The notes under the pieces are model-generated. The model saw only the letters and a list, made by a program, of their open reading frames with translations, was not told the DNA's origin and made no database searches. The translations under genes and the position numbers were made by a program. Positions 14,518 through 30,113 of a stretch of DNA of 64,000 nucleotides are shown piece after piece; position 1 is the stretch's first letter; each line of letters begins with the position of its first letter. The stretch lies in contig JADHSM010000001.1 of the NCBI GenBank assembly GCA_016776905.1, positions 112,691 to 176,690 on the forward strand, read 5' to 3'. The stretch comes from Planctomycetota bacterium. Lineage in GTDB: Bacteria; Planctomycetota; UBA8108; UBA1146.

Positions 14518-15498
14518 ATGAAGGCACTCTTCGACTCAATATCTCGAGTGATCGTCGCTCTGGGAGCCTGGGGGCTTGTCAGAGTGCTCTCCATCCCCGG
14601 GACAGCGATGGCTCGGAAATGGGGTGTTGTCCTCGGAAATTTGGCCTATGTCTTGTGTAAAGCCGATCGTGATCGTGCATTTCGTCAGTTTGCCCAGCTC
14701 GATTCTTCACTGTCCTCTCGAACCCGAACTGTCATGGTGAAAAATAATTTTCGAAACTTGGGGAGCATGCTTCTCGAGACGATCAGTTTGGCTCATCGAA
14801 GTGATGGTGTTCCTGCTCTTGAAGAGGAGCAGGGTGGAGTCCGAATCGATGGATTGAAAGAATTCAGGGATCGGATTCATGAGTTGCGTCAGGAATCGGG
14901 AGTGGTGGCGATCTCCGCCCATTTGGGGGCATGGGAATTAGGTGGAGCAGCCTTGGGACAGATATTGTCTTCCGATGCGTTTGTTCTCGCCCGAAGGTAT
15001 GACGTGGATTCTCACCAAGGCTTGGTTTCAAAGATCAGGGCCAGATTGGGAACACCTCTTCTCTATCAGGATCAATCACTGATCAGAGCCCTGCGAGCCC
15101 TGAAAAATCGGCAAGTGATTGCCATGTTGGTCGATTTGGACATCCGTGCCATGGATGGTATTCAAGCTCCATTTTTGGGAACAGATGCTCATACGACGAC
15201 GGCTCCTGCCCGATTAGCTCTTAAAACGGGCTCACCCATGTTGCCCTACTTTGTTGTGAGAGTCGGGGATCATTATCAACTTCAAATGGGAGACCTGATC
15301 CCGGTTCCTGAGTACTCAGCGGAAGAGTCAGAAGACCAAATCCAAAATCTGACGTTTCAGATGAATGAGGCTATTTGTCGCGAGATTCGTCGTTACCCCG
15401 AACAATGGATATGGATGCATCCCCGTTGGCACTCTACTCCCGAGGTGATTGCGCAAAGAAAAGCCCGTCGGGCTTTAAAAAACGACCCCGCAGGATAG
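14518..15498 (+). CDS. Lipid A late acyltransferase (LpxL/HtrB family)
   Basis: SAHLGAWE, MLVD, PFLG and YPEQWIWMHPRW motifs. Confidence 0.87.
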   Translation: MKALFDSISRVIVALGAWGLVRVLSIPGTAMARKWGVVLGNLAYVLCKADRDRAFRQFAQLDSSLSSRTRTVMVKNNFRNLGSMLLETISLAHRSDGVPALEEEQGGVRIDGLKEFRDRIHELRQESGVVAISAHLGAWELGGAALGQILSSDAFVLARRYDVDSHQGLVSKIRARLGTPLLYQDQSLIRALRALKNRQVIAMLVDLDIRAMDGIQAPFLGTDAHTTTAPARLALKTGSPMLPYFVVRVGDHYQLQMGDLIPVPEYSAEESEDQIQNLTFQMNEAICREIRRYPEQWIWMHPRWHSTPEVIAQRKARRALKNDPAG

Positions 15499-15619
15499 AT
15501 AGGGCTCCAACGCAAGCCGCTCTGGCGAGTTGAGTCCTCACCTTGAGAATGCGGCCTAGAAGTTTTAAGATGTGCAGATCCCCGATCAGTCTCGTGGGAT
15601 CTCGAAAGAAGAGGCTCGC

Positions 15620-16531
15620 ATGTTTACCTCCAACAATTCTCTCGGCTTAACGTTGCGTTTTATTCCTGCCGGAGCAAAAGTTTGGCTCACTTCCATCATT
15701 GTTCTCATGTTCCTCGTCAGTCCCGGAATGGCTCAGAACAATCCTGAACTAGACTGGAAGAAACCTGAGGGCCAAGCGATCTTTGATGAAGGCAAAACTT
15801 TTTACGATTCTAAAGAATATAAGAACGCTATAGATAAGTTTAAAGCGGCCAGAAAAATAGCGAAGAACAGAGCCACTCGAATGCACATCGACAATTGGTT
15901 GCTGGCGACGGAAGGCTCCAATGAATTGGATGCTTTACGAAAGCAGGCCGAACAGGGAAAAGAATCTGCGGCTTATCGTATTGGAGCGAGAAATTATCCT
16001 CGCTTTGCCCAATCTCCAATCGGAAAGAACTACAAAAACTTTTTAACAGAGTTGGAGACGAAGCTTTTCGTTGTATTGGATGATTTTGAGAGAGTCTCGA
16101 AGAGATACTCTGAAAAATACGGCAAGAAATTCACGGACGAAGCTGAACGAGTTCAGCAAGGAAAGCGCGCTCTGGAATGGAGCGTCAGTTCCAAAGCGAA
16201 TGAACTGAAGATTAAGACTCTCCCTCGAAGTTTGGAGGGATTCAAATCTCTTGTGCTGTACATGGACCTTCCCAAAGGAGGAAGTCCCTATCAGTTAGTC
16301 TTTGTTGTTCCTGGGAAAAGTGAAGAAGGCCTCGCCAAGGTGACCTCTGTACAAAATGCTTATATGGCTCAAATGAAGGCTCATAGAGGTCTTAAAAGAA
16401 TCGAAATCCCGCTGAAAAACTTTAAAGGGCAGGGAGACGTGGAATGGAGTCGCGTGAAGGATTTCAGAATCCAATTCCTTGGCGGCAAGAAGTTTACAGC
16501 ATACGTCGATTTCGTCGCTTTGCAGAAGTAA
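15620..16531 (+). CDS. Exported protein with a TPR-like helical region and a probable carbohydrate-binding-like C-terminal domain
   Basis: Hydrophobic segment ending in PGMA-Q; FDEGK.FYD.KEY..AI..F; C-terminal IEIPLKNF..VEWSRV..YVDFV pattern. Confidence 0.6.
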   Translation: MFTSNNSLGLTLRFIPAGAKVWLTSIIVLMFLVSPGMAQNNPELDWKKPEGQAIFDEGKTFYDSKEYKNAIDKFKAARKIAKNRATRMHIDNWLLATEGSNELDALRKQAEQGKESAAYRIGARNYPRFAQSPIGKNYKNFLTELETKLFVVLDDFERVSKRYSEKYGKKFTDEAERVQQGKRALEWSVSSKANELKIKTLPRSLEGFKSLVLYMDLPKGGSPYQLVFVVPGKSEEGLAKVTSVQNAYMAQMKAHRGLKRIEIPLKNFKGQGDVEWSRVKDFRIQFLGGKKFTAYVDFVALQK

Positions 16532-17276
16532 GTCCAGAGTCGCCGAGAGGGGAGGAGCCTGCTCCTTCCCGCCATAGTTTTTCAAAGTTTTGTGACGCGA
16601 GCTCTGTCGCTTGGTTCAAAGAGTCTTGGAGTTCTAGAGTACGATTTGAATCGTCAGCTCTACGAGATCCCGGGAGAACCGGAGGGGCGACGACGATCAC
16701 CGCACGTGTTCCCGGGTACGGAAGAATCATTCGATCCCAAGTGCCTAAGCGGCAGTATTTTTCAGCAGCAAATCCAAGTGGAATCATGGGGACGCCCAGT
16801 CTTCGTGAAAGTGCTGCGGCTCCTTCCTTTGCTTCTTGAGGGGGGCCTTTCGGTCCGTCCACAGAGATCACCGGAGAAAGTCCCGTTTGAGCCAGTGTTT
16901 GCAGTCTCTGGAATCCTCTTAATCCTCCTCTGGAACTGGATCCGTGACACACCTGAACTCCTAGGTGTCGTAATGCCGATCCTAGTCTTGCACCGTCGTG
17001 GTGCTGACTGGTGAGGGCACAAAATCCATTTTGCTTCAGGGTGAAACTCAGGGGGAAGACCCACTCATGCCAAAAGGTGACGACAAGGTTACCGTGATTT
17101 TGTAAGCCTGAGATAGCGTGATCATATCCCGACCATCTGAGGTCGACCGAGGACATCAACGATTCGATGATTCTCGCGACAATCCTTCCCGAGAAGGGGT
17201 AAGGATTTTCAGATTCGTGTGAAGGGGTTTCAATCGTCATATCTGTAGCATCGCTTGCAATAGGGGGAGGGGTCAA
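16494..17276 (-). CDS. DUF374 lysophospholipid/lipid A acyltransferase family
   Basis: FWH, SQHHDG, GSSSRGG, DGPKGP and WDRMILPYP motifs. Confidence 0.85.
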   Translation of the reverse strand: MTPPPIASDATDMTIETPSHESENPYPFSGRIVARIIESLMSSVDLRWSGYDHAISGLQNHGNLVVTFWHEWVFPLSFTLKQNGFCALTSQHHDGARLGSALRHLGVQVCHGSSSRGGLRGFQRLQTLAQTGLSPVISVDGPKGPPQEAKEGAAALSRRLGVPMIPLGFAAEKYCRLGTWDRMILPYPGTRAVIVVAPPVLPGSRRADDSNRTLELQDSLNQATELASQNFEKLWREGAGSSPLGDSGLTSAKRRNRRML

Positions 17277-18349
17277 CCTGTAGATTCTTTTCCAGCGAGA
17301 GAATCACGGTTGATTTTTTCTAATACGTCGAAGACTCGATCGACGCTGATAGAAGCCATGCAATAGGAATGATCACACCTTCGCAATAAACAGGGGGAAC
17401 AAGGAATTTCTGCAGCTAGAGATATGGCACTTGGGCCATAAGGGCCATGCACTGAAGGATCCTTGGGCCCATAAAGACCGACTGAGGAGACTCCCAAAAT
17501 TGCGGAGAGATGAATGACACCTGTATCTGCTGCCACGACTGCTCGACATTCAGAAATCATTCGACCCAAGTCTGCGGTACTTTTTGTGGGCGGGGCTGCG
17601 ATGACCTCTGGCGGAGTGGCTTTCAGAAGCTGAGATACGGCCTTTGCATCTGAAGGCCCTCCTGAAATCCAGACGACGTGTCCCCGGTCTGAAAGACGAG
17701 TCGCCAATTGTATCCACTTAGAAATGGGCCACTCTTTGAATCGGCCAAATGCACTGACAAAGGGGTGGAGTAAAATTGGGGCGTTAAAGGCAGCGTTTCG
17801 ATTCGGAATATCTGAACCCATTTCGCCGACAGGGGTCTCTCCCGAATAACCGAGTTGTCGCACGAGGTGCATGGCTCTCTCTACACGATGTACTCGTCCC
17901 GCAGGACGAGAGGGTCGATAACCTGACCACCAGCGAGGAAGTTCACCTCCATCCTCTGGATGAAGTTGCAGTGTACGCCTATGCCGAGTGAGGGATCGAA
18001 TCCACGCGGATCGAAGATTGGATTGCCAGTCGATGATCAGGTCGTAGTAATCTTGGAATATCTCCTGTCTGAAATATTCCAGTTTTTCTCGAGCTTCACC
18101 CCGGGTTTCAGGAGATTTCCACCCATTTCGAATCTCCGACCTCGGGAAGCAAATCACTCGATCGAGCCGGGGGTGATTTGCCAAGAGGGGGTATGAGAGT
18201 GATTCTGTTACTGCATCGATACGGGCAGCAGGATACAGCCTTCCTAGCGCTTCCAGAGCGGGAAGGACCTGGATCACGTCTCCAAGGGCACTGAGCCGGA
18301 TGACGAGGATCCGCTGCGGTGATAGGGGTTCACTGGGAAGTCTTCTCAC
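17273..18349 (-). CDS. GT9 LPS heptosyltransferase (WaaC-like)
   Basis: ILVIRLSALGDV, DWQ, HP..KEWP, DTGVIHL, LYGP and C-terminal CSPC..C motifs. Confidence 0.88.
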   Translation of the reverse strand: MRRLPSEPLSPQRILVIRLSALGDVIQVLPALEALGRLYPAARIDAVTESLSYPLLANHPRLDRVICFPRSEIRNGWKSPETRGEAREKLEYFRQEIFQDYYDLIIDWQSNLRSAWIRSLTRHRRTLQLHPEDGGELPRWWSGYRPSRPAGRVHRVERAMHLVRQLGYSGETPVGEMGSDIPNRNAAFNAPILLHPFVSAFGRFKEWPISKWIQLATRLSDRGHVVWISGGPSDAKAVSQLLKATPPEVIAAPPTKSTADLGRMISECRAVVAADTGVIHLSAILGVSSVGLYGPKDPSVHGPYGPSAISLAAEIPCSPCLLRRCDHSYCMASISVDRVFDVLEKINRDSLAGKESTG

Positions 18350-18439
18350 GTGGGGTAGAATGACGGGTGTCAGGGGTAAAGGGAACCCGATTCCGCGGGG
18401 GAATTTTATCCATCATCTGAACTGTCGAGGAGGCGTCCT

Positions 18440-19564
18440 TTGAGTGTCTTGTTAGGGCTGGAACTTTCCGGAGATACCATCACGTTGATGGCGGTAGACC
18501 GGAAGGGAACGAGATTGTCAGTAGTTCAAGAGGCGGTTTCCGTTCCTTTTATAGAGGATTGGAAGGTGCATCCCGATGAAAGGGTGCGTTCGGTCCGAGC
18601 TCTACTCCAACATGCATTGGAAGAAGGCAAGATTCGTCCGGGGTCTATTGCTGCCATCGGTATAGCAAGTACTCCGGGACTTGTCTTGGTCGATGCGGAA
18701 ATGGAGCCTGTTCCTCCTCGGGCTATCGGTTGGAGTGAGGAGGAGCCACCCATTCCAGAGTTGCATGAAAGAATCCCTGCCACCCTCTCCAAATTTCCAG
18801 GGCTGACACGCAGCCTCGTCGCAGTGTTGGATATCAAGGATTGGTTGAGGTATCGCTGGACCGGTGCGTTGGCGACGTCCTCGCAGTTCGCTTGGGAGTC
18901 TGGACTGACTCCTGGGTCTCACTCTCCAGAACGTTGGGATCCAGCATGCGTCGATGCGGTGGGTTTGAATTCTGGCCAGTTGCCACCCGTGATGCCAGGA
19001 CACCAGCGCGTAGGGATATTGCAGGAAGAGATGGTTCGAGAGACAGGCCTTCCTCGGGGAACCTGGTTCATGGCCGGAACAGTTCCTCGTGCAGCTCGAC
19101 TCTGGATGGCGTGTGAACCCAAGAGTGGACAGCGCATCATTCTCCTTGAAAAAGATAATGTCACCGCGTGGCGAGTGACGGATGCTAAAGAAGTCTCACC
19201 CGACGACAGGAACGCGATTCCTGCACCCTTGGGTGATCACTGGTACGTTCAAGAAAAAGGTGAGATGGAGGATCCCCGACAAGGGGGATCCGTCGATGTG
19301 TCAGCCATTTACGATTCAGCAGGAGATGCGGGCTCTGGTGAATGGGCCGCCCCCGCTGAAGACATTCGTTTGTCTGCCGATTTTGGAAAACCCTCGAGAG
19401 GTCCAGCCTTGCTCGCAGGGGTGGGTCTGGGTTGGTATCGAGACATGAAGCCGTTTTGGCGCAAGCGTTGTGCTCTTCAAACTTTGGCGCAATGGATGGA
19501 ATCCGCCTCCTCGAAAACCTCGACTGAGGATCCCATGAGTCCAGGATCAGGAGCGCCCCAATGA
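18440..19564 (+). CDS. Degenerate FGGY carbohydrate-kinase-fold protein
   Basis: IAAIGIA, LVDA..PV..AI.W, KDWLRYRWTG, LPPV and GPALLAGVGLGWY match FGGY kinases, but the catalytic motifs are altered and the C-terminal domain is short. Confidence 0.7.
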   Translation: MSVLLGLELSGDTITLMAVDRKGTRLSVVQEAVSVPFIEDWKVHPDERVRSVRALLQHALEEGKIRPGSIAAIGIASTPGLVLVDAEMEPVPPRAIGWSEEEPPIPELHERIPATLSKFPGLTRSLVAVLDIKDWLRYRWTGALATSSQFAWESGLTPGSHSPERWDPACVDAVGLNSGQLPPVMPGHQRVGILQEEMVRETGLPRGTWFMAGTVPRAARLWMACEPKSGQRIILLEKDNVTAWRVTDAKEVSPDDRNAIPAPLGDHWYVQEKGEMEDPRQGGSVDVSAIYDSAGDAGSGEWAAPAEDIRLSADFGKPSRGPALLAGVGLGWYRDMKPFWRKRCALQTLAQWMESASSKTSTEDPMSPGSGAPQ

Positions 19565-20580
19565 AATCGGCTCTGACCCTCAAAGAACAATTGCAAGATA
19601 GGTTCAGGGGAGTCTTTTTGGGGGCCGCCGTAGGAAGTGCTTTGGGGTTCCCAAATGCAGGATCTTCAAGAACCTTCATGCGAGCACTGGGAAACGAAGC
19701 GATGGAGGGTTACCTCAGGCATCGCAGTGGATATTTCCCCGAAGGTCAGCACGGAGCTTCTGTTCAGTTGCTCTCGTTAGCTACGCGAGCCGTCACGCGA
19801 ACCGGTGAGATCAATAGTATGGAAATCGTCGATGAATGGGTTCCCCTTTGGAGGGAAAATCGAATCATCGAACGTCTCCCGGAAGTGGACAGTGCGATGT
19901 CGCGCTGGCTACGTCAGGGAAACACCGCACGTGGTTGTGCATGTGCACCCGGCGAAGACGGAGCTGCCGCTATTCTATGCGGCGTCTTATCCGGTCTCTG
20001 GAGTCATGACACTCCAGATCAAATCATGGAAAACACAGAAATTCTCACCAGCATCACGCACGAAGATTCCACAGTAAGAGCTGTGAATGCTGCGCTTGCC
20101 ACCATCATTGCTCATTGTTTGACTCACCATGACATCGTATTGGGAGTTGTGATCGATGCTGCCGCAGAGGCAGCCGGCAAAATAGACGGCACTGTTTCTG
20201 AAGCGTTGCAGAAAATCCCATCCATGTTGACTCGCAATGAAGATGAAGCCTTTCTAGAGTTGGCTCACTCTTCAGATGACAGTCATCAAGTCGAGAGGGT
20301 AGGGGTCGAAGATCGTTGCCTTCCTGTCTTTTTGATTGCTGTTCATTCGTGGCTGAGAGATCCGGTTAATCCCAACTCGGTGATTCGGTCATGTCTCCAA
20401 TCCGGTGGAGCTGTTCAATTGACAGCAGCCATAGGTGGCGCGTTGGTCGGGGCCTGTTGCGGAGAAGCAGGGCTTCCTGCCCGATTGGTCAATGGGCTTC
20501 TCGAGGTGGATGAACTCCGCAAGGATGCTGATCAGCTTTATGATCGTCAGCAGTTGGAACGTAGAAGAAGAAGCATTTAG
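19561..20580 (+). CDS. ADP-ribosylglycohydrolase-fold protein lacking metal ligands
   Basis: DRFRGVFLGAAVGSALG, ITH and TAAIGGALVGA..G...LP motifs. TDD and DTD are absent. Confidence 0.8.
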   Translation: MKSALTLKEQLQDRFRGVFLGAAVGSALGFPNAGSSRTFMRALGNEAMEGYLRHRSGYFPEGQHGASVQLLSLATRAVTRTGEINSMEIVDEWVPLWRENRIIERLPEVDSAMSRWLRQGNTARGCACAPGEDGAAAILCGVLSGLWSHDTPDQIMENTEILTSITHEDSTVRAVNAALATIIAHCLTHHDIVLGVVIDAAAEAAGKIDGTVSEALQKIPSMLTRNEDEAFLELAHSSDDSHQVERVGVEDRCLPVFLIAVHSWLRDPVNPNSVIRSCLQSGGAVQLTAAIGGALVGACCGEAGLPARLVNGLLEVDELRKDADQLYDRQQLERRRRSI

Positions 20581-20683
20581 GTTATTATTTAGAAGAGTGT
20601 GGGGTTGGCTGTCAGGCCAACAACCGGGTATTCTCGGAAGTCCCACAAGTCAACACGTCGCAGGCGTGCAAAAGGAGATCACA

Positions 20684-20914
20684 TTGGCTGAAGACATGAG
20701 ATTGTTCGGCGAAGTGGCCTTTGAACTACAATACATCACGACTTCCCAACTCTATGAAGGTCTGGCAATCCAGGCGCGCGATGAAGCCCGTGGCGCCGAT
20801 CATAGATTTTTGGGACAGATCTTGATGGATCTGGGGCATTTAAAAGAAAAACAGGTCCTCGAAGTCCTTCGTATTCTGCACGACAGGCCCCGGCAGGGTG
20901 TCGAGGAGAAGTAA
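20684..20914 (+). CDS. Small stand-alone MshEN-like protein (76 aa)
   Basis: AAGGAG precedes TTG 20684. Tandem motifs RLFGEVAFELQYITTSQLYEGLAIQ and RFLGQILMDLGHLKEKQVLEVL. Confidence 0.7.
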   Translation: MAEDMRLFGEVAFELQYITTSQLYEGLAIQARDEARGADHRFLGQILMDLGHLKEKQVLEVLRILHDRPRQGVEEK

Positions 20915-21950
20915 CCTGTCTTCTGAGAATCCCATTCCATCTCTCCCTTCTCCCATTCTGGCATGGCTCGAGAAAGCCTGGAGAGTGGGTGCCTCCCTCG
21001 GAGAGTGGCGTCATCAACGACAAGTTCTCCGTGGGATCTGGCCTCTCAAGCTCTCGGTTCCGGTGATCAGCATCGGTAATCTCACCGTCGGTGGTACAGG
21101 GAAAACTCCAACAACAGTGAGTCTTGCGCGTGCATGGCAGAAACGTGGTGGGCACCCTGGAATACTGAGTAGAGGTTACAAGGGGGGAGCGGATGGGAAT
21201 GATGAATACCACATGCTCAAAGAGCAGCTTCCGGACGTTCCTCATCTGCAAAATCCGCAACGTCACAAGGCCGGCGAACAATTGTTGAAGGCATACCCCG
21301 AGGTGGATCTTCTATTTTTAGATGATGGGTTTCAGCATCGACGCCTTTATCGAGACTTGGACGTGGTTCTTTGTGATGCCAAGGATCCCTTTGGCGGAGG
21401 TTATTGTCTTCCGAGGGGGCGGTTACGTGAACCTGTGACGGCTCTCGCGAGAGCGCAACATATTTTGCTCACTCGATCTGAGCGCTGTACTGAAATTGAA
21501 TTGAAAAATGTACGGGGCTTTTTTAGACAGATGTTTCCAACGATCCCTGTCAGTTTGGCCCGTACTGAAGTTGTTGGTTTGCAAAAGTTATCGGGAGAAA
21601 AACTCGATCAATATCCAGAGGGTCAGTTTCTCCCATTCAGTGCGATTGGCGATCCTTCAGGATTCCAGCATTCTCTGAAGAGTCATGGGATTCAAATCCA
21701 TCCGAGTATTTGTTTCAGAGATCATCACTCTTTTCGATCCACGGATCTGGCCACTCTGGAGAGAAAATCGACGGAGTTGGGGGCTGCGGGACTGATATGC
21801 ACCTTAAAGGATGCTGTCAAAATCAGGGAGATGACCCTGCCTGCGGGACTTCAAAATCGGGTTTATGTTCTCGAAATCCGTCAGAATATCGATTCAACGG
21901 AACTCCTTGAGGGATTCCGCCCAGGAACACCTCGGGGAGAGGTGAACTGA
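20898..21950 (+). CDS. lpxK: Tetraacyldisaccharide 4'-kinase
   Basis: VISIGNLTVGGTGKTP, LSRGY, LDDGFQH, LPRGRLREP, FRDHH, TLKDAVK. Confidence 0.95.
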   Translation: MSRRSNLSSENPIPSLPSPILAWLEKAWRVGASLGEWRHQRQVLRGIWPLKLSVPVISIGNLTVGGTGKTPTTVSLARAWQKRGGHPGILSRGYKGGADGNDEYHMLKEQLPDVPHLQNPQRHKAGEQLLKAYPEVDLLFLDDGFQHRRLYRDLDVVLCDAKDPFGGGYCLPRGRLREPVTALARAQHILLTRSERCTEIELKNVRGFFRQMFPTIPVSLARTEVVGLQKLSGEKLDQYPEGQFLPFSAIGDPSGFQHSLKSHGIQIHPSICFRDHHSFRSTDLATLERKSTELGAAGLICTLKDAVKIREMTLPAGLQNRVYVLEIRQNIDSTELLEGFRPGTPRGEVN

Positions 21951-21994
21951 ACCGGCCTCTCTGATAGCATCCCCGCTAGTGAAGAGGAGATCTC

Positions 21995-22939
21995 ATGAAC
22001 AATAAAGAGAAGTGGCAACCCCTCGATCTAGATGGAGTTCATTCCACTCCCATCGCTGATCGCAAGAACATCGTTCGAAGAGATCAGTTCAAGGATCTCT
22101 GCGATCCTTCGGCGTCCTTCTCGGAGTGGCTCTCATCCCTGCCGGACATTCTCGCTGCGGGCGAGCTGAGAGCCGCAGCTGAAGCCGTCGCTCTCTCACA
22201 TGAGGCGAAGGCACCCGTCATCGCTGCTCTCGGGGGGCATGTTGTCAAGGTCGGTATGGGACCGGTGATGATTGATTTGATGGAACGTGGTCTCATTCAG
22301 GCATTGGCCATGAACGGTGCCACGGCTATTCACGATCTTGAACTGGCTATGATTGGCGAAACTTCAGAGGATGTTGCGACGCATATTGCGGATGGTTCCT
22401 TTGGAATGTCGCGGGAAACCGCAGAGTCCTTTCGTCAAGGAGCTGAACGAGGTGCAAAAGGAATCGGACTGGGAGCGGGTCTAGGGAGCTGGATCCTCGA
22501 GGAAAAGATGCCTCATGCTGAAATCTCAATGCTGGCTTGTGCCAGGCGGTTGGGTATCCCAGCGACAGTGCATGTCGCTTTCGGAACTGACATCGTTCAT
22601 ATGCATCCGGGTGTCGCTGGAGGAGAGATGGGTGAGGCCACGTCCATCGACTTCCGACTTTTGGCTGCCGTTGTGCATGATTTGGAAAATGGGTGTTGGC
22701 TGAATATTGGTTCCGCTGTGGTGATGCCTGAGGTTTTTCTCAAGGTGGTCAACATTGCCCGAAATCTGGGGCAGAAACTTGAGGGTATCACTGCGATCAA
22801 TTTCGATATGATTCCTCATTACAGAACCAGTCGAAATGTCCTCCAAAGACCTGTGGAGAGAGGCATTTCTCTGATTGGACATCATGAGATTAATCTGCCC
22901 CTATTCAGAATGGCATTGCTTCAAAGAGTGGAGAAATAG
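21995..22939 (+). CDS. Conserved protein of probable deoxyhypusine-synthase-like fold
   Basis: GGHVVKVG, AMNGATAIHD, VHVAFGTDIVHMHP, GSAVVMPEVFLK and GHHE. Fold assignment is from memory of the family. Confidence 0.6.
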   Translation: MNNKEKWQPLDLDGVHSTPIADRKNIVRRDQFKDLCDPSASFSEWLSSLPDILAAGELRAAAEAVALSHEAKAPVIAALGGHVVKVGMGPVMIDLMERGLIQALAMNGATAIHDLELAMIGETSEDVATHIADGSFGMSRETAESFRQGAERGAKGIGLGAGLGSWILEEKMPHAEISMLACARRLGIPATVHVAFGTDIVHMHPGVAGGEMGEATSIDFRLLAAVVHDLENGCWLNIGSAVVMPEVFLKVVNIARNLGQKLEGITAINFDMIPHYRTSRNVLQRPVERGISLIGHHEINLPLFRMALLQRVEK

Positions 22940-24450
22940 TGATGATTCCTGAACTGGAAGATCTATCCCTAGACGAGCCGATTCTCATCATTGGCGATTT
23001 GATGCTGGATGAGTACTTCCTAGGAGATGTCGAACGGATTTCTCCTGAGGCTCCGGTGCCTGTTGTTCGAGCACAGCAACATGAACGTCGTGTAGGAGGA
23101 GCGGGAAGTGTCGTGGCCAATCTTTCTGCACTTGGAATTCCTACAAAAGTCTTAGGCCTTGTCGGAAGAGACGAAGCGGGAGATCACATCGTATCCGCAC
23201 TCTCTCAATTGGGGGCTGACGTCGAAGAAGTCGTGACTTCTGACCAAAGGCCGACCAGTTGTAAGACTCGGATTCTTGCCGGTGTCCAACAAGCGGGGAG
23301 AGGACAGCAGCAAATTCTCCGACTCGATCGTGAGGAAGTTCAAGAAATCTCTGTCGAAGAGACACTCGCTTGTCGATCTGCATTGAGTCGTATCTTTGCA
23401 GGACCACTCTCCATGATTCTTGTTTCAGATTATGAAAAAGGTCTGCTCTCCGAGGATCTGATTCAGTTCGTGATTACAGAAGCGAAGCAACGTGGGATTC
23501 CTGTTCTCGTCGATCCGGGGAGATCAGGGCAATGGAGCAAATTTACTGGGGCAACTCTGATTTGCCCGAATCGGTTCGAAACTTCAGCAGCCACCGGTAT
23601 GGAAGTGGGGGCTGAAGTTCCTGAGCATGCCCAGGCCGCAGAGTCTTTGATCGATCGTTTAAAACTAGAGCATTGTATTTTGACATTGGATAGAGACGGG
23701 ATAACGAGAGTCTCCAAAGGAGGCGAATTACGGCGTCACCCCACTCGTGTTCAGGCCGTGACCGATGTGGCTGGAGCAGGAGATATGGTTTTGTCTCTAC
23801 TCGGAGTGGCATTGGCTTCTGGCTGGTCGATGGATGAAGCGTGTCAACTCTCCAATCTGGGTGCGGGCCTAGAGATTCAAAAGGTGGGGGTCCAGCCCGT
23901 GGAGAGATGGGAATTGTCGGCTGCGAGAGATGCACACTGTGGGATTCAGCCAGATTCGGCTCGTTCAGCATCGGAAATGGTCCGGATCGTAGAGAATTAT
24001 CGAACAGCTGAGCAGAAGGTGGTTTTCACCAACGGTTGTTTTGATCTCCTCCATTCGGGTCATCTTCAGCTTTTAGAAGCAGCAAGGGCATTTGGCGATG
24101 CTCTAGTGATCGGTTTGAATTCTGACGCTTCAGTGACTCGTTTGAAGGGAGCGGAGAGACCTATTCTTCCCGCTTCTGAGCGAGCCCGGTTATTAGGGGC
24201 TCTGTCATGTGTAGATCACGTGGTGATCTTCGAGGAGGACACTCCTGAGCAGTTGATAGACGCTCTGCTTCCAGACGTCCTCGTCAAGGGAGCGGATTAT
24301 GCTATTGAAGAGGTCGTGGGCAGAGAAGCGGTTGAGGCTGCGGGTGGAAGGGTCGAAACAGTGACTCTCAGACCCGGTTTCTCGACCACGGGTTTGATCG
24401 AGCAAATCCGAAGTGGGACTCGATCTTGCCCCCAGACCCCTGAAGGCTAG
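22939..24450 (+). CDS. hldE: Bifunctional heptose 7-phosphate kinase / heptose 1-phosphate adenylyltransferase
   Basis: GDLMLDEY, RISPEAPVPV, SDYEKG, DVAGAGD; VFTNGCFDLLHSGH, GLNSDASV, LVKGADY, FSTT. Confidence 0.96.
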   Translation: MMIPELEDLSLDEPILIIGDLMLDEYFLGDVERISPEAPVPVVRAQQHERRVGGAGSVVANLSALGIPTKVLGLVGRDEAGDHIVSALSQLGADVEEVVTSDQRPTSCKTRILAGVQQAGRGQQQILRLDREEVQEISVEETLACRSALSRIFAGPLSMILVSDYEKGLLSEDLIQFVITEAKQRGIPVLVDPGRSGQWSKFTGATLICPNRFETSAATGMEVGAEVPEHAQAAESLIDRLKLEHCILTLDRDGITRVSKGGELRRHPTRVQAVTDVAGAGDMVLSLLGVALASGWSMDEACQLSNLGAGLEIQKVGVQPVERWELSAARDAHCGIQPDSARSASEMVRIVENYRTAEQKVVFTNGCFDLLHSGHLQLLEAARAFGDALVIGLNSDASVTRLKGAERPILPASERARLLGALSCVDHVVIFEEDTPEQLIDALLPDVLVKGADYAIEEVVGREAVEAAGGRVETVTLRPGFSTTGLIEQIRSGTRSCPQTPEG

Positions 24451-24571
24451 GATACGGGTTGTCCTGTCAAAGGTGTGTCCCACCTTTTCCTTGGATAGCC
24501 CAATGTCGTCAGGTGTTTTTCAATCCTGAGGACCAGTCCTCTACCCGAAGCCCAAACCACGGGGAGTATAC

Positions 24572-25939
24572 ATGACAGAAGAGACTCGGAACGAGACGAG
24601 GGATCGTTCCAGTGCAGCGACGATGTTTGGTCGAATTGCACTGAAGAATAAACTCGTCGATGAAGCTACCCTCAAACAAGTGATGTCCGAATTACCCGCA
24701 GGAGCGGATCTCGGGGCAGTGCTCGTCAAACAGGGTTTGATATCAGAGCAACATGCCGAAGCGATTCAGAAAAAGATTACTGCACACATGAAGAGTGCTC
24801 CCGCTGCTGGAAATGGCGCTTCTGCGTCAGCCGCGACGGGGGGGGGGACTACGGTTGCTGATGTCCAGCGAATGGATTTCAGCGACATGCATGGGAAACC
24901 CATCCGCGAATATCTGAAGCGGGTAAGGGAGTTTGGCTGTTCGGATTTCCATTTCCAGGTGGACTCTGCACCTCTCGTTCGTTTACACGGACAATTGATA
25001 AGACTCAAGCATCCGACGTTGACAGCAGAGAACACTGAAAATGCGATCCGAGAGCTTTTAGATGAAGAACAGTGGAAAGAACTCGAAGTACACCTCGATC
25101 TAGACTTCTGCCTCGAAACAGAAGATCACGGTCGTTACAGAGCGAATTGTTTCCAGCAACGAAAAGGAAAAGAAGCCATCTTTCGGCTGATTCCGATGAA
25201 GGTTCCCACTCTTGAGGAACTCAAGTTGCCTTCCGTACTCAAGGAATTTACGCAATACAATCAAGGCATCGTATTGGTGACAGGGCCTTCAGGGTGCGGT
25301 AAATCTGCGACATTGGCTGCTCTCGTGGGCATGGTCAATGATCAAAGAAACGATCATATCGTGACCGTTGAAGACCCCATCGAGTACATCTTTGAACCTT
25401 CTGGATCAAATATCAATCAAAGGCATGTTCGCCGTCATACCGATAGCTTTCACTCTGCATTGAGATCCGCCATGAGGGCGGACCCAGACGTGATCATGGT
25501 GGGAGAGATGCGGGACGTCGAGACGATCTCCATGGCCATCACTGCTGCTGAGACAGGTCACCTCGTTCTGGCCACACTACACACGACGAATGCGGTGAGA
25601 TCTCTGGATCGTTTGATCGATGTTTTCCCACCCCGGGAGCAAGAGCAAATCAGAGCGATGGTTTCGGAATCGATGCGCGGAGTGGTCTCGCAGCAGTTGT
25701 TACCCCGTAAAGATGGATCAGGTGTAGAGCCTGCTCTCGAAATCATGTTTGCCACTCCAGCAGTGGGCAATTTGATTAGAGAAAACAAAACCTTCCAACT
25801 GCCTTCGGTTCTTCAGACCGGAAGAAAGCAGGGCATGGTTACGATGGACGATTCTATTCGTGAATTGCTGAAGAAGGGTGTGATCACTCCGGAAGTGGCG
25901 CGTTACCACGCAGAAGACCCCTCAAGGATGAAGGGCTAG
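24572..25939 (+). CDS. pilT: Type IV pilus retraction ATPase with an N-terminal MshEN-like extension
   Basis: GPSGCGKS, EDPIE, DPDVIMVGEMRD, GHLVLATLHT and NLIRE motifs, plus about 100 extra N-terminal residues. Confidence 0.92.
   Translation: MTEETRNETRDRSSAATMFGRIALKNKLVDEATLKQVMSELPAGADLGAVLVKQGLISEQHAEAIQKKITAHMKSAPAAGNGASASAATGGGTTVADVQRMDFSDMHGKPIREYLKRVREFGCSDFHFQVDSAPLVRLHGQLIRLKHPTLTAENTENAIRELLDEEQWKELEVHLDLDFCLETEDHGRYRANCFQQRKGKEAIFRLIPMKVPTLEELKLPSVLKEFTQYNQGIVLVTGPSGCGKSATLAALVGMVNDQRNDHIVTVEDPIEYIFEPSGSNINQRHVRRHTDSFHSALRSAMRADPDVIMVGEMRDVETISMAITAAETGHLVLATLHTTNAVRSLDRLIDVFPPREQEQIRAMVSESMRGVVSQQLLPRKDGSGVEPALEIMFATPAVGNLIRENKTFQLPSVLQTGRKQGMVTMDDSIRELLKKGVITPEVARYHAEDPSRMKG
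24838..24847 (+). repeat. G10 homopolymer in the pilT interdomain linker
   Basis: acG GGG GGG GGG act, encoding Thr-Gly-Gly-Gly-Thr. Confidence 0.9.
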
Positions 25940-25946
25940 GAGAATC

Positions 25947-27011
25947 ATGAGTACCGAACATATCGATAAGTTACTGAGAATGATTAAGGATCTGAATGGG
26001 TCTGATTTGCACGTGAGTGCGGGTATGCCTCCAAAGATTAGAGTCCATGGTCATCTCCGATCTGTTTCAAAGGAGCCTTTGACTCCTCAGCAAACAGAGC
26101 AGTTGTTACTTCCAATACTCGATGAAAAACGTCGAGAGCTCCTGTTGGAAAAGAATGACCTCGATTGGGCATATGCCATGCCAGGTGTTGCTCGATTCAG
26201 GTGCAGTTTCTTCCGCCAACAGCATGGTCTTGCTGGCGTGTTTCGAATGATTCCGGAAGAAATCTTGCCTGTTTCCGCTTTGGGTGTCCCTCCTCATATT
26301 GAGAAGTTTTGTCACTTGAAGAATGGTCTCGTGCTTTGTACCGGCCCGACGGGAAGTGGAAAGTCCACGACCTTGGCGGCTCTTGTTGACTACATCAATC
26401 AGAATCAATCTCGTCATATTGTCACCATTGAAGAGCCGATTGAATTTGTCCATGCCAATAAGCAGTCTCAAATTACTCAAAGAGAAGTTGGCATCGATTC
26501 AGAGTCTTTTGCGAAAGCTCTTCGTTCAGTCGGTCGTCAAGACCCGGACGTGATTCTCGTCGGAGAATTGAGAGATCTGGAAACCATCGGATTAGCGATC
26601 ACTGCTGCCGAGATGGGGTATCTGGTTTTTGCTACCTTGCACACCAATAGTGCTGCAAAGACTGTCGACCGTATCATCGACGTATTCCCTGAAGAGCAGC
26701 AGAATCAGGTGAGAACGATGCTCTCTTGTTCTTTAAAAGGGATCATCGCGCAGTTATTGATTCCGAAGAAAGATGGAAAAGGTCGAGTCGTGGTCAACGA
26801 GCTCCTCTTCCATGATGGGGCATTACCCAACATCATTCGTGAAGGAGCAGTGCACAAAATCGTGTCACTGATCGAAGGAGGACGGGGTAAAGGGATGCAA
26901 TTGATGGACGATGCCATTCTTGCAAGACTTAAAGAGGGCTCCATCAGTGCTGAGGATGCATATCGCTGGGCCGCAGAGAAGAAAAAGTTCCAACACCTCC
27001 TGAAGGGTTGA
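25947..27011 (+). CDS. pilT: Type IV pilus retraction ATPase (canonical length)
   Basis: SDLH, GPTGSGKST, EEPIE, DPDVILVGELRD, ATLHT, NIIREG. Confidence 0.94.
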   Translation: MSTEHIDKLLRMIKDLNGSDLHVSAGMPPKIRVHGHLRSVSKEPLTPQQTEQLLLPILDEKRRELLLEKNDLDWAYAMPGVARFRCSFFRQQHGLAGVFRMIPEEILPVSALGVPPHIEKFCHLKNGLVLCTGPTGSGKSTTLAALVDYINQNQSRHIVTIEEPIEFVHANKQSQITQREVGIDSESFAKALRSVGRQDPDVILVGELRDLETIGLAITAAEMGYLVFATLHTNSAAKTVDRIIDVFPEEQQNQVRTMLSCSLKGIIAQLLIPKKDGKGRVVVNELLFHDGALPNIIREGAVHKIVSLIEGGRGKGMQLMDDAILARLKEGSISAEDAYRWAAEKKKFQHLLKG

Positions 27012-27015
27012 TCAG

Positions 27016-28056
27016 TTGAAAACTGATTTGAGAATTCTCGTCAGGATGCCCACGTGGGTAGGGGATGCCGTAATGGCCACCCCCGCTCTACGGGGAATCA
27101 GAAACAAATACCCAGATGCGCACGTCCAACTGATGGGGGGTGGGCATCTGCAGTCTCTCCTCGATGGGGCCGAGTTGTTTGACGAATGGATTCCTGTTGC
27201 CCAAGGTAAAAACAGGGTCCAGAGGAACATCCGTCTTATCCGGCAATCAAAAGCTGATATCGCCATTTTGCTACCCCATTCCTTTCGGACCGCGTTTGAA
27301 ACCTGGCGTGCTGGAATTCCTCGACGTATCGGTATGGATCGGCAGTGGCGGGGTTTATTCCTGACCGACCCTTTGTTGATGCCAAAACTGCTTCCCGGTC
27401 GTCGTGCATTTCCCATGCACTACGAATATCTTGAGGTGGTTTCTGCATTGGGTGTCATAGGAGATGGACGAGGATCTGTTTTGGCAGCGTCTGACCCCAC
27501 GAGGAAGCGTGCTGAAAAGCGACTCTTGGCATTGGAGTGTGACCCTGAGCGACCTTGGGTGGGCCTTCATCCGGGAGCGGCATTCGGGCCATCTAAAATC
27601 TGGCCCCTTGAGCGTTTGGCAGAGGTCGCGAGATCGCTTCGAGATGATGACGGGTGCGATATCTTTATCACCTGTGGTCCAGGGGAAGAGGGGCTCGCTA
27701 GAGAGTTGGAAGAACTGATGGGCGGACGTCAAATAAATTTGGCGGATGACCTGTGGCCTCTAGATGAACTCAAAGTATTGATGGAGAAGTTTTCACTTTT
27801 GATTACGGGGGATACGGGGCCGCGTCATATCGCCGCAGGAATGAACACCCCTCAAGTCGTCATCATGGGCCCCACAAGCCCCGACTATACCGATGCTTTC
27901 TTAGATACGACCACTGTCTTGAGGAAGCCTGTCGAATGCAGTCCATGTCAACAAAAGGTGTGCCCCTTGGGGCATCACCTTTGTATGACTGAAATCCAGC
28001 CGTCAGATGTCTTACTGGCGGCGAGGAGTTGGTTACAGGAAGAACTCTCTTCCTGA
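27016..28056 (+). CDS. waaF: LPS heptosyltransferase II
   Basis: PTWVGDAVMA, LPHSF, PGAAFGPSKIWP, DTGPRH, GPT and CSPC..CPLGHHLCM motifs. Confidence 0.9.
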   Translation: MKTDLRILVRMPTWVGDAVMATPALRGIRNKYPDAHVQLMGGGHLQSLLDGAELFDEWIPVAQGKNRVQRNIRLIRQSKADIAILLPHSFRTAFETWRAGIPRRIGMDRQWRGLFLTDPLLMPKLLPGRRAFPMHYEYLEVVSALGVIGDGRGSVLAASDPTRKRAEKRLLALECDPERPWVGLHPGAAFGPSKIWPLERLAEVARSLRDDDGCDIFITCGPGEEGLARELEELMGGRQINLADDLWPLDELKVLMEKFSLLITGDTGPRHIAAGMNTPQVVIMGPTSPDYTDAFLDTTTVLRKPVECSPCQQKVCPLGHHLCMTEIQPSDVLLAARSWLQEELSS

Positions 28057-28064
28057 AGGTCGCC

Positions 28065-29156
28065 TCAGTTCTGAACGAGAGCTTCTACCATTTTGTGGGC
28101 AATAGAAGTCATGGTGCTGGCGAGCGCTCCATCTGGTTGACTGATCATCACTGGCGTTCCTGAATCTCCTTGGATAGCTGTGCTGGGTTCCAATGGGATT
28201 TTTCCGAGGAAGGGCACGCCGTAACGATTAGAAATCTCCTCACCTCCTGCGCCGGGGAAGATTTCGGTCACATGACCACACTCAGAGCACTGGAAATGGC
28301 TCATGTTTTCGACCACTCCCAAAATGGGAACGCTAGTTCTCTGGAACATCTGGATTCCTCGTTGGACGTCGAGAAGTGCGACATCCTGTGGGGTCGTCAC
28401 GATCACCCCTCCTGCGAGGGAGAGTGATTGAACCAGTGTCAACTGAGCATCTCCAGTTCCAGGTGGGAGATCTAGAATCAGAAAATCTAACTCACCCCAT
28501 TCGACCTGAAACAGGAACTGTCTCAGTAATCCGGTGACCATCGGACCTCTCCAAATGACGGGAGAGTCTTCTTCCAGAAGGTAACCAATCGACATGGTTT
28601 TCAGACCATGAGATTCAATCGGCAGAATAGTCTCATGTTCTGTTGCGTTCGGTCTGTCAGCTTCTGTTCCCAGCATTTTAGGTGCAGAAGGTCCGTAGAC
28701 ATCTGCATCGAGGAGACCGACTCGTTTTCCGAGTTTTTGAAGTGCAACGGCTAGATTCACAGCGACTGTCGATTTACCGACTCCACCTTTGCCACTGGCA
28801 ACGGCAATGACGTGTGTGACTCCTGGAATATCCTGAGCGCCTACTGTGTTAGGGCCTGGCCCTTGCGCACCCTCGGGAGCCGGGCTGGACTCTTCCGTCT
28901 CCGGTTTTTTATGAAGGAGAGTGACTTTCTTGACACTTTCGATTTTGGAAATCTCTTCTTCGATACGTTCCTGTATGGATCCTTGCTGACTGGTCAGCTC
29001 GGGAGGGAATTCGATCACGAGTGTGATTTCTCCCTCATGAGCAATCACTCGTTGTATCAGTCCCGCTTGAACTATGTTTCCGGGTGTGCCCGGAAGAGGA
29101 ATCTCCGAGAGGGTCGTTTGAATCTGTTCGAGGACTTTAGCCTTGTCGAAAACCAT
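28065..29156 (-). CDS. Mrp/ApbC Fe-S cluster carrier ATPase
   Basis: ASGKGGVGKST, DADVYGPS, WRGPM, DLPPGTGD, VENMS and CSECG motifs. AGGAG precedes ATG 29156. Confidence 0.93.
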   Translation of the reverse strand: MVFDKAKVLEQIQTTLSEIPLPGTPGNIVQAGLIQRVIAHEGEITLVIEFPPELTSQQGSIQERIEEEISKIESVKKVTLLHKKPETEESSPAPEGAQGPGPNTVGAQDIPGVTHVIAVASGKGGVGKSTVAVNLAVALQKLGKRVGLLDADVYGPSAPKMLGTEADRPNATEHETILPIESHGLKTMSIGYLLEEDSPVIWRGPMVTGLLRQFLFQVEWGELDFLILDLPPGTGDAQLTLVQSLSLAGGVIVTTPQDVALLDVQRGIQMFQRTSVPILGVVENMSHFQCSECGHVTEIFPGAGGEEISNRYGVPFLGKIPLEPSTAIQGDSGTPVMISQPDGALASTMTSIAHKMVEALVQN

Positions 29157-29495
29157 CTGTATCTCCTGATCTGACTCGTGTGTCATTTGTTTCATGGATG
29201 GAGGTTTCGGGTTTGAACGGTACATCGCCTTCTTCCTGCATGACCGCAGAAAGGATCCCAGCAACCTCACGTCACTATCAGAATGGAACAAATGATGGGA
29301 AGACAGCGATTTTTGCCTGATAGAAGTCAGGTTAGACGCTTTTCCGGTAAAGGTGTCCTGTGATCGATAGTGTGGATTCCTTCATTTCGTGACCCATCTG
29401 TCCTCAGAGAGGACTGATTGAGGTTTTACCACTCACGTTGGTTAAGATTCATGGAGTCGAGAGAAGAGCCACTATTCAGCTTTTAAGGGGTTTGT

Positions 29496-29879
29496 ATGTC
29501 AAATTTTAGTTTCATAAATGCAGAAGATCTCGACTCTGTATTGAGTGATAAATCAGGCCTTCAATTAGTCCATTTTGGCAGTTCTCTCGTGACTTCTTGT
29601 AATTTCATGAGAAGAAGCTTGTCGATCATTTCTTCCGAATTTGCTGAGTCGTTGCCGATGATTGAAGTTGAGTTACAACTGACCCAGATTGAAGTGGTTC
29701 AGAAGTATCAAGTTCGATCCTTGCCCACCATCTTGATTTTTCACGAGAATCAAATTAAAGAGCGTCTCGAAAGAATCCTGCTCCCAGCAGAATTGAGGCA
29801 GTTTCTTCAAGATACCGTTTCATTCCATGCGGTTGCCGAGATCACTCCAAAGCCAGAAGACAAAGACACCTTGAATTAA
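29496..29879 (+). CDS. Thioredoxin-fold protein without a CXXC motif
   Basis: LVHFGSSLVTSC at the active-site position and KYQVRSLPTILIF at the cis-Pro loop. Confidence 0.7.
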   Translation: MSNFSFINAEDLDSVLSDKSGLQLVHFGSSLVTSCNFMRRSLSIISSEFAESLPMIEVELQLTQIEVVQKYQVRSLPTILIFHENQIKERLERILLPAELRQFLQDTVSFHAVAEITPKPEDKDTLN

Positions 29880-29957
29880 CAGTGCCTATCTCAGTGCCTA
29901 TCTCAGTGCCTATTTCAGTGCCTATTTCAGTGCCTATTTCAGTGCCTATTTCAGTGC
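29880..29957. repeat. 12-bp tandem repeat CAGTGCCTAT(C/T)T, 6.5 copies
   Basis: 2x CAGTGCCTATCT, 4x CAGTGCCTATTT and a partial CAGTGC, starting right after the TAA at 29879. Confidence 0.97.
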
Positions 29958-29966
29958 TTTAGAGAC

Positions 29967-30113
29967 TCATTCCGCCAATTCTTCATCTGCTAGAATTGAA
30001 GCGCGGCACGCGGATGACTCCTCGCTGATCTCCATCCGCATCTCCAGAATCTTTCCCGAGTGGGGAAGTCTGGGTTTTGGGAACTCCCGTTCCTGTTTCT
30101 CCGTTACATCCAT
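29967..30113 (-). CDS. Putative 48-aa small protein (below the ORF-track cutoff)
   Basis: Manual translation MDVTEKQEREFPKPRLPHSGKILEMRMEISEESSACRASILADEELAE*. No clear RBS. Confidence 0.35.
   Translation of the reverse strand: MDVTEKQEREFPKPRLPHSGKILEMRMEISEESSACRASILADEELAE

Follow-up and report, generated by a model that had tools for sequence, protein, structure and literature searches.

The gene run at positions 18440-28056 raises the question of why two ATPases of the PilT family should be encoded between hldE and waaF, two genes of lipopolysaccharide (LPS) heptose metabolism. The run lies in a 64,000-nt stretch (the window; contig JADHSM010000001.1, positions 112,691 to 176,690) of assembly GCA_016776905.1, the genome of a marine planctomycete (2.9 Mb, 94% complete), and contains nine plus-strand genes: a trimmed FGGY-fold protein (g1), an ADP-ribosylhydrolase (ARH)-fold protein (g2), a small MshEN-like protein (g3), lpxK (g4), a GSU2086-family protein (g5), hldE (g6), an N-extended PilT-family ATPase (g7), a second PilT-family ATPase (g8) and waaF (g9). 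An earlier reading made from the DNA letters without database searches (the sequence-only reading) had proposed this set, and the open reading frame (ORF) list and the matches to Pfam and NCBIfam families showed that the genes are real, at those coordinates, and rightly named. Only g3 had been drawn wrongly; the gene exists, but the 159-aa ORF at 20435-20914 was corrected to 20684-20914 (76 aa). Our analysis suggests that the run is a conserved, layered envelope supra-operon of one Planctomycetota lineage in which LPS inner-core synthesis is co-expressed with an accessory PilT pair, a reading in which we place about as much belief as doubt.

The order of the genes was the main evidence. Relatives of g1 were sought by a pattern scan with one genome per species, and full-length relatives were found at only 32 loci (L041-L072), the other hits kept being weak or incomplete matches to proteins such as ordinary FGGY kinases. 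When these loci were searched by tblastn with the window proteins, the order g1-g9 was intact in 22, nine were cut by contig ends, and one (L067, in genome G027) had g1-g6 only. These loci overlap the genomes sampled for the class and the phylum and are kin, and they are not independent samples. Twenty stretches around GSU2086-family genes gave the same picture of gene order. The class was sampled with 59 genomes from seven families. Both lpxK and an orthologue of g8 were found in 48 of them, and in 41 of the 48 the two genes lay 1.5-5 kb from each other on one strand of one contig.

Four genomes from other families of the class were read in detail. G036 has an ARH-fold gene on the minus strand beside g3, lpxK, hldE, g7, g8 and waaF; G034 has the same arrangement as far as hldE, where the contig ends; G031 has ARH, lpxK, g7, g8 and waaF; and G032 has an ARH-fold gene and, after an interval, lpxK, hldE, g7, g8 and waaF. 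The genes that flank the block in the window (lpxL, orf319, DUF374, waaC and apbC) were not beside it in any of these four genomes. The block thus stays collinear while its surroundings change across families. Outside the class, the link between LPS genes and the PilT pair was detected in three genomes, all without ARH-like, g3 and g1 genes. The order is lpxK, lpxL, lpxL, GSU2086-family, hldE, g7, g8 and waaF in G065, where the GSU2086-family gene adjoins hldE; lpxK, lpxL and GSU2086-family, then g7 and g8, then waaF, with intervals between these groups, in G069; and hldE, g7 with g8, and waaF, again with intervals, in G141. The occurrence of waaF after the PilT pair therefore extends to other families and to genomes outside the class. 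The waaF homologue 3' of the PilT pair in G141 (L221, contig C88, 3828-5039) was matched by tblastn in two pieces and may be a disrupted gene. In a sample of 121 genomes of the phylum, the PilT pair was upstream of only two of the best 30 heptosyltransferase II loci, and hldE was a neighbour in four others of the 30.

These comparisons show a layered history, in which a core was followed by additions at the level of the class and then of the order. The old core, present in several classes, would consist of lpxK and hldE, often with lpxL and a GSU2086-family gene, followed by the N-extended PilT, the second PilT and waaF. The class layer would have brought the ARH-fold protein and the 76-aa MshEN-type protein, both upstream of lpxK, and the order layer the trimmed FGGY-fold protein and the current position of the GSU2086-family gene. 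Because the link between LPS genes and PilT exists without g1, g2 and g3, g1 and g2 are late additions and not the basis of the coupling. Conservation of gene order far beyond close relatives also argues against chance operon shuffling, the outcome that the sequence-only reading had set against its own proposal.

The spacing of the genes indicates how the block is divided. From g1 to g9, with the corrected start of g3, the intergenic gaps are -4, 103, -17, 44, -1, 121, 7 and 4 nt. Across loci, g1/g2, g5/g6, g7/g8 and g8/g9 overlap or are 4-8 nt apart, and the gap between g8 and waaF has a median of 4 nt over 23 loci; since these four pairs overlap or are 4-7 nt apart, they are probably translationally coupled. 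The largest gap of the run, between hldE and g7 (24451-24571, plus strand), is the longest gap at every locus (112-582 nt, median 144, n=26). In G027 the cluster breaks at this spacer, and g7, g8 and waaF are together on another contig. The break and the long spacer indicate at least two modules, g1-g6 and PilT-PilT-WaaF. Immediately downstream of the hldE stop codon is a stem-loop (AAAGGUG...CACCUUU) followed by a U-rich stretch; its folding z-score of -2.2 is not decisive. At the corresponding position relatives carry other hairpins or T-runs, and the stem-loop may be an attenuator or terminator before g7. A scan for promoter and terminator patterns gave nothing above shuffled sequence on the plus strand. 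The genes probably form two or three transcription units (g1-g2, g3-g6 and g7-g9). Public runs X1-X5, which hold the locus, are Logan contigs marked 'RNA? (probably DNA)', and because they cross convergent genes they are silent on transcripts. One X5 contig, whose nature as DNA or RNA is uncertain, spans 24221-24630 and so crosses the hldE-g7 spacer.

Both members of the PilT pair (g7, 24572-25939; g8, 25947-27011; plus strand) score above the cut-off of the pilT_fam model TIGR01420 (430.1 bits for residues 111-450 of g7 and 435.4 bits for g8 vs. 319.1). Both carry G-P-[ST]-G-x-G-K-S and D-P-D-V-I-x-V-G-E, which we take to be the Walker A and Walker B motifs. In g7, the PilT ATPase is preceded by a four-helix MshEN-like module of about 100 residues and a flexible linker. 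The gene product of g8 is the most conserved of the cluster, being 70-95% identical within the order and 58-66% identical in other families. Tandem pilT-pilU operons encode retraction ATPases of type IVa pili in Pseudomonas and Neisseria. The g7-g8 pair likewise consists of two adjacent PilT/PilU-family genes, but here there is an N-terminal MshEN-like module, waaF follows, hldE or lpxK precedes, and a separate PilT is encoded in a pilB-pilC cluster. In agreement with the sequence-only reading, which had noted no pilB, pilC or pilin gene near the run, g7 and g8 gave the only T2SSE, T2SSF or N_methyl matches found in the window. The genome contains nine T2SSE-family ATPases and 17 prepilin-type N-termini, none of the latter in the window. 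Elsewhere it has a cluster of pilD, an OmpA-family gene, pilT, pilB, pilC and pilS-pilR-like genes, a gene cluster for type II secretion, another group of pilB-pilB-pilC, a PilT-like gene close to secretin and pilO genes, and a fifth PilT-like gene that is truncated where contig C13 ends. In one family, g8-like PilT proteins lie in open frames of about 800-824 aa (L171 and L175; G093:C57 and G061:C456), long enough to suggest that another domain is fused to them; neither locus has a detected g7-like or waaF gene within 1.5 kb.

The LPS genes of the run were compared with family models. The lipid A 4'-kinase gene lpxK (g4, 20898-21950, plus strand) matched Pfam LpxK with 233.7 bits and TIGR00682 with 178 bits (cut-off 91.95). 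The hldE gene product (g6, 22939-24450, plus strand) has the PfkB (115 bits) and adenylyltransferase (CTP_transf_like, 66.2 bits) domains in one protein, as expected of a bifunctional heptose kinase/adenylyltransferase; it was above the cut-off of TIGR02199 (196.4 vs. 181.5) and below those of TIGR02198 (290 vs. 345) and NF008454 (423 vs. 521). The heptosyltransferase II gene waaF (g9, 27016-28056, plus strand) starts 4 nt past g8 and matched TIGR02195 with 159.4 bits (cut-off 134.6). Divergent from the run, as the sequence-only reading had stated, are a DUF374 gene and a WaaC-like gene for a GT9 enzyme, both on the minus strand. The latter (17273-18349; Pfam Glyco_transf_9, 106.3 bits) has heptosyltransferase I as its best match, with a TIGR02193 score of 137.8, under the cut-off of 185.3.

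The gene between lpxK and hldE (g5, 21995-22939, plus strand) belongs to the 'GSU2086 family' (NF052581, 360.8 bits vs. a cut-off of 250), and 36 of 41 related genomes have a match above this cut-off. Its likeness to deoxyhypusine synthase (DHS) is weak (23 bits), and the fold is a remote DHS/LOR-SDH-like Rossmann fold. An excerpt of a study of Geobacter sulfurreducens places GSU2086 between hldE (GSU2085) and gmhA (GSU2087) and reports similar defects for all three by transposon sequencing (PMC5585712). With hldE next to a GSU2086-family gene both there and here, g5 is labeled a partner of hldE. Replacement of gmhA by the GSU2086-family gene was considered and rejected, because gmhA-like SIS (105.8 bits) and gmhB-like HAD (103 bits) genes are together on contig C22. 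In G011 the GSU2086-family gene (C38, 110983-111868) is in two adjacent pieces (profile positions 1-136 and 157-298), possibly a frameshift or a split gene. As in the LPS inner-core and heptose operons of other bacteria (waa/rfa, hldE-gmhA), lpxK, hldE, a GSU2086-family gene, waaF and a waaC-like gene lie together here; in contrast to them, gmhA and gmhB are elsewhere, and genes for two PilT ATPases, the MshEN-like mini-protein and the two degenerate enzymes stand among the LPS genes. We know of no such arrangement of PilT, MshEN and pseudo-enzyme genes in the waa or hld operons described so far.

The corrected g3 gene (20684-20914, plus strand) begins with TTG, 6 nt after AAGGAG, and the 76-aa reading follows from this start and from its agreement with the 72-88 aa of relatives. 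The AlphaFold2 (AF2) model has four helices (predicted local distance difference test, pLDDT, 87.6). All ten of its best Foldseek matches in the PDB were c-di-GMP-bound structures of MshE or PilF GSPII-B (probability 0.97-1.0), with E-values (0.02-0.7) that are weak because the protein is so short. The best, 5htl_B, superposed with a root-mean-square deviation of 0.9 A over 59 columns and 29% identity. Neither g3 (as the 159-aa ORF) nor g7 matched the MshEN family PF05157 at E < 0.01, and both were under the cut-off of NF053729 (28.9 and 23 bits, respectively, vs. 38); PilB and GspE paralogs from the same genome scored 55-70 bits on PF05157. The MshEN domain is a four-helix bundle built from two motifs of 24 residues. 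The motif, (R/K/L)LGxx(LVI)(LVI)xxG(LVI)(LVI)...L...L..Q, is described in an excerpt of PMC11731258 as occurring twice with a 5-residue spacer; in the same excerpt the four-helix subdomain alone binds c-di-GMP, and the GSPII-B domain of PilF is without the last Gln of motif II. Measured against this motif, g3 retains both motif glycines, the motif I Gln and most of the hydrophobic positions, and these are invariant. Its first motif position, filled by L/M or F, is hydrophobic as in PilF GSPII-B, and Gly at position 10 of motif I is found only in outer lineages. The g3 model superposes on the four-helix N-subdomain of MshEN and PilF GSPII-B (PDB 5htl and 8pdk), but it has no C-terminal subdomain and no attached ATPase, and its inter-motif spacer is 11 residues rather than 5.

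Comparison by hhalign (93.8%, E 1.7e-7) shows that g3 and the N-terminal extension of g7 are homologous. Together with the fold match of g3, this supports the view of the sequence-only reading that both modules are MshEN-like. The extension is more degenerate than g3: motif II begins with an acidic residue, and Ala stands where a Leu belongs. It is without key positions of the c-di-GMP motif, which weakens the sequence-only reading. The g3 family contains 374 protein clusters at E <= 0.001; among the best 120, most are 72-88 aa long and the named ones are 'hypothetical proteins' of Planctomycetota. In G034, the best g3 homologue (L202, C154:7193-7411) has one in-frame TGA inside the match. The genome contains two GGDEF genes, and g3, as a putative c-di-GMP receptor, is the best candidate for a small-molecule input to the cluster.

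The two enzyme-like proteins at the start of the run are degenerate in this genome. The g1 gene product (18440-19564, plus strand) is 374 aa long vs. about 480-500 for full FGGY kinases, and it lacks the full pair of N- and C-terminal domains; FGGY_N matched with 46.7 bits over residues 121-213 only, on profile positions 145-235, and Pfam gave no FGGY_C match. The AF2 model (pLDDT 93, predicted TM-score 0.90) had xylulokinase, LsrK and glycerol kinase as its best PDB folds by Foldseek (E about 1e-16, TM-score by query 0.6-0.7). On this model, g1 is with high confidence an FGGY-kinase fold trimmed in its second domain. It shares the two-domain ASKHA fold with XylB, LsrK and GlpK, its profile aligning to residues 3-237 of xylulokinase, but it is shorter and has neither FGGY_C nor the N-terminal Asp-x-Gly-Thr-type loop. 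This phosphate loop was absent in all 33 sequences. The FGGY D-x-G-T-[ST] loop and the Asp of GGGD presumably serve in phosphate binding and catalysis; at two aligned catalytic places the window protein has L-E-L-S-G-D-T and G-T-V-P, and V215 occupies the place of the GGGD Asp in the alignment to xylulokinase. That place holds D or E at nine of ten outer loci, and the Asp is missing in the window and at all 22 other loci of its subclade, where V, T, E or S is found instead. Judged by these residues, g1 is not a canonical kinase in this genome.

The g2 gene product (19561-20580, plus strand) matched ADP_ribosyl_GH (PF03747) over its full length (91.4 bits vs. a gathering threshold of 26.2; residues 17-308 on profile positions 1-287), and a profile of its orthologues found the structures of MJ1187, DraG and ARH3 with E-values of 5e-27 to 1e-14. 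The positions of the three motifs that we take to hold the di-metal site of ARH enzymes (GDAxG, [ST]DD[ST] and GGDxD[ST]) were taken from alignments to MJ1187 and DraG. The window protein has GSALG for GDALG, GASV for SDDT and GGAVQL for GGDVDT. All 21 scored subclade proteins and the window protein read G-[SN]-A-L-G, G-A-x-V and G-G-[ASC]-x-x-[LM], where G-D-A-L-G, [ST]-D-D-[ST] and G-G-D-x-D-[ST] are expected. The g2 protein shares its full-length Pfam match with the ARH/DraG family, which includes inactive members such as ARH2, and differs in the replacement of all three metal-binding motifs in the window subclade and in partial, different erosion elsewhere. Among the ten outer loci of the order, the first-motif Asp was present in nine of nine readable sequences, S-D-D-T in six of ten and G-G-D-V-D-T in five of ten. 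The four homologues from other families are degenerate in differing ways, and the canonical set of motifs was present in only four of the 34 sequences scored. Unconstrained parsimony needs two changes between canonical and degenerate states; at least six separate losses are required only if the site cannot be regained, a soft number given the quick tree and its long branches. In L065 the region of the third motif consists of unrelated residues on a very long branch, possibly a frameshift or an assembly error.

Selection on these genes was estimated from the ratio of nonsynonymous to synonymous substitution rates (dN/dS) in the seven pairs with unsaturated dS among ten tried. The values were 0.12-0.27 for g1 and 0.03-0.18 for g2, comparable with 0.10-0.25 for lpxK and 0.03-0.22 for hldE. 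Being under purifying selection, g1 and g2 are functional proteins, but in this genome they have most likely ceased to be these enzymes. The description of both as dead enzymes in the sequence-only reading therefore holds here, but as a general status for g2 it is contradicted by the full catalytic motifs at four of the ten outer loci. Inactive members of the ARH family are known among the J1 crystallins, and known ARH-fold members bind ADP-sugars. The g1 and g2 proteins may have non-catalytic binding or scaffold roles, and would then bind rather than convert a ligand. A complex prediction for g1 with g2, each protein with its own alignment, gave no verdict (score 0.00).

The surroundings of the run were also characterized. 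Upstream are an lpxL-type lipid A acyltransferase gene (14518-15498, plus strand; Pfam Lip_A_acyltrans, 128.9 bits), which is found upstream in most loci of the order, and orf319 (15572-16531, plus strand), a conserved 319-aa ORF with orthologues 31-66% identical at the same place in relatives of the order and without a family match in Pfam or NCBIfam. A weakly recognizable orf319 relative (23% identity) is beside DUF374-waaC in another family (L129). The DUF374 gene (16494-17276, minus strand; 58.1 bits) adjoins the waaC-like gene in other families too (L129, L130 and L132). Downstream, a gene for an Fe-S carrier of the ApbC/Mrp type, extended at its N-terminus by about 50 residues (28065-29291, minus strand), converges on waaF with an 8-nt gap, an arrangement present throughout the order and not in other families. 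About 39 of the 56 large ORFs of the window are on the plus strand, and plus-strand runs of eight and 11 genes also occur, so the notion that a co-directional run of nine would by itself be improbable was rejected. The evidence against chance is the conserved gene order and not co-directionality. No known riboswitch was indicated, since an Rfam scan of 16000-30000 at E <= 1 gave no matches, and a known defense system was ruled out, as PADLOC gave weak P-loop matches to g7 and g8 alone. A literature search, whose scope did not extend to supplements, found no publication on this gene cluster.

Synteny is what suggests a functional link between LPS synthesis and the PilT pair, and several explanations of it were weighed. 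According to the supra-operon reading, the cell would co-express inner-core LPS synthesis and an accessory PilT-type motor pair, outer-membrane core assembly and the capacity for pilus or fiber retraction would be made together, and the block would be kept because the two must be made, or act, together; g3 may bring in c-di-GMP. A number of observations weigh against it. The counts overstate independence because genomes of one lineage share ancestry. In seven of the 48 class genomes lpxK and g8 are on different contigs, and although G034 and G166 are consistent with contig breaks, in at least G027 and G039 the two are truly separated. The spacer between hldE and g7 is never shorter than 112 nt, carries a hairpin and is split in one genome, so the two modules can work apart. 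The pilB-linked PilT elsewhere in the genome scores higher on pilT_fam (479.5 bits) than g7 and g8. Three N-extended PilT tandems (G048, G128 and G135) have no LPS gene within about 8 kb, and the generalization that every such tandem is LPS-linked was rejected on their account. Finally, none of the listed public runs holding the locus is on record as RNA. On a rival, neutral reading, g7 and g8 would be ordinary PilT/PilU retraction ATPases that came to stand between hldE and waaF by historical accident and stayed there because it is costly to break tight, constitutively expressed operons, with no functional tie to LPS. In its favor are the separation of the modules in G027 and G039, the spacer of at least 112 nt before g7, the frequency in the phylum of PilT tandems with no LPS gene nearby (nine lacking the N-extension and three or four with it) and the long plus-strand runs common in the window. 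Against such neutral hitch-hiking stand the collinearity of the block amid rearranged flanks in other families, the linkage in three genomes outside the class and the 4-nt median gap between g8 and waaF, and we consider it somewhat unlikely.

Other readings give the extra genes a larger part. The sensor model of the sequence-only reading, as weighed here, would have the dead FGGY and ARH folds bind heptose phosphate or ADP-heptose and, by way of the MshEN-like modules, adjust PilT retraction to the state of the envelope. Purifying selection on g1 and g2 despite their lost catalytic residues speaks for it, as do the ADP-sugar ligands of known ARH-fold proteins and a long branch of 1.3 that leads to the degenerate ARH subclade and suggests a change of role. 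Its difficulty is that the link between LPS genes and PilT reaches further than either protein, g1 being confined to a single order and g2 to a single class, and that some outer loci of the order retain an intact g2 site; as the origin of the linkage a pseudo-enzyme sensor fails outright, the linkage being older than both pseudo-enzymes, and the model as a whole has in our view only a slim chance. Equally slim is the chance that the N-extended PilT pair is a non-pilus ATPase module serving LPS or outer-membrane assembly or another planctomycetal surface structure. The pair is additional to a canonical pilB-linked PilT, its genes lie 4-7 nt from each other and from waaF, and LPS linkage was found only for N-extended tandems (0 of the nine without the extension). 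Yet the ATPase cores are closest to bona fide PilT (318 bits for g7 vs. PDB 3jvu, compared with 245 for PilU), nothing in the cluster encodes a platform or partner dedicated to such a role, and to our knowledge no PilT-family protein acts on LPS. A bolder version, in which the PilT pair, g3 as c-di-GMP input and the decayed ARH protein as an ADP-sugar adaptor form an unrecognized cytoplasmic ATPase module acting on or gating LPS inner-core assembly, is improbable, if a shade less so.

The envelope of Planctomycetota has long been disputed, and its LPS genetics has barely been studied. If lipid A and heptose enzymes are tied to a PilT pair across several classes, as the supra-operon reading proposes, the cluster would offer a testable handle on how the building of the outer membrane relates to the dynamics of surface fibers; were the LPS-gating module real, it would be a new job for a PilT-family motor, instead of or besides pilus retraction. 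The ARH-fold protein provides a natural case of drift from enzyme to pseudo-enzyme, its metal site having eroded in several lineages under continued selection. The g3 protein draws attention to a widespread family of minimal MshEN four-helix proteins that stand alone and may be the smallest c-di-GMP receptors of that type.

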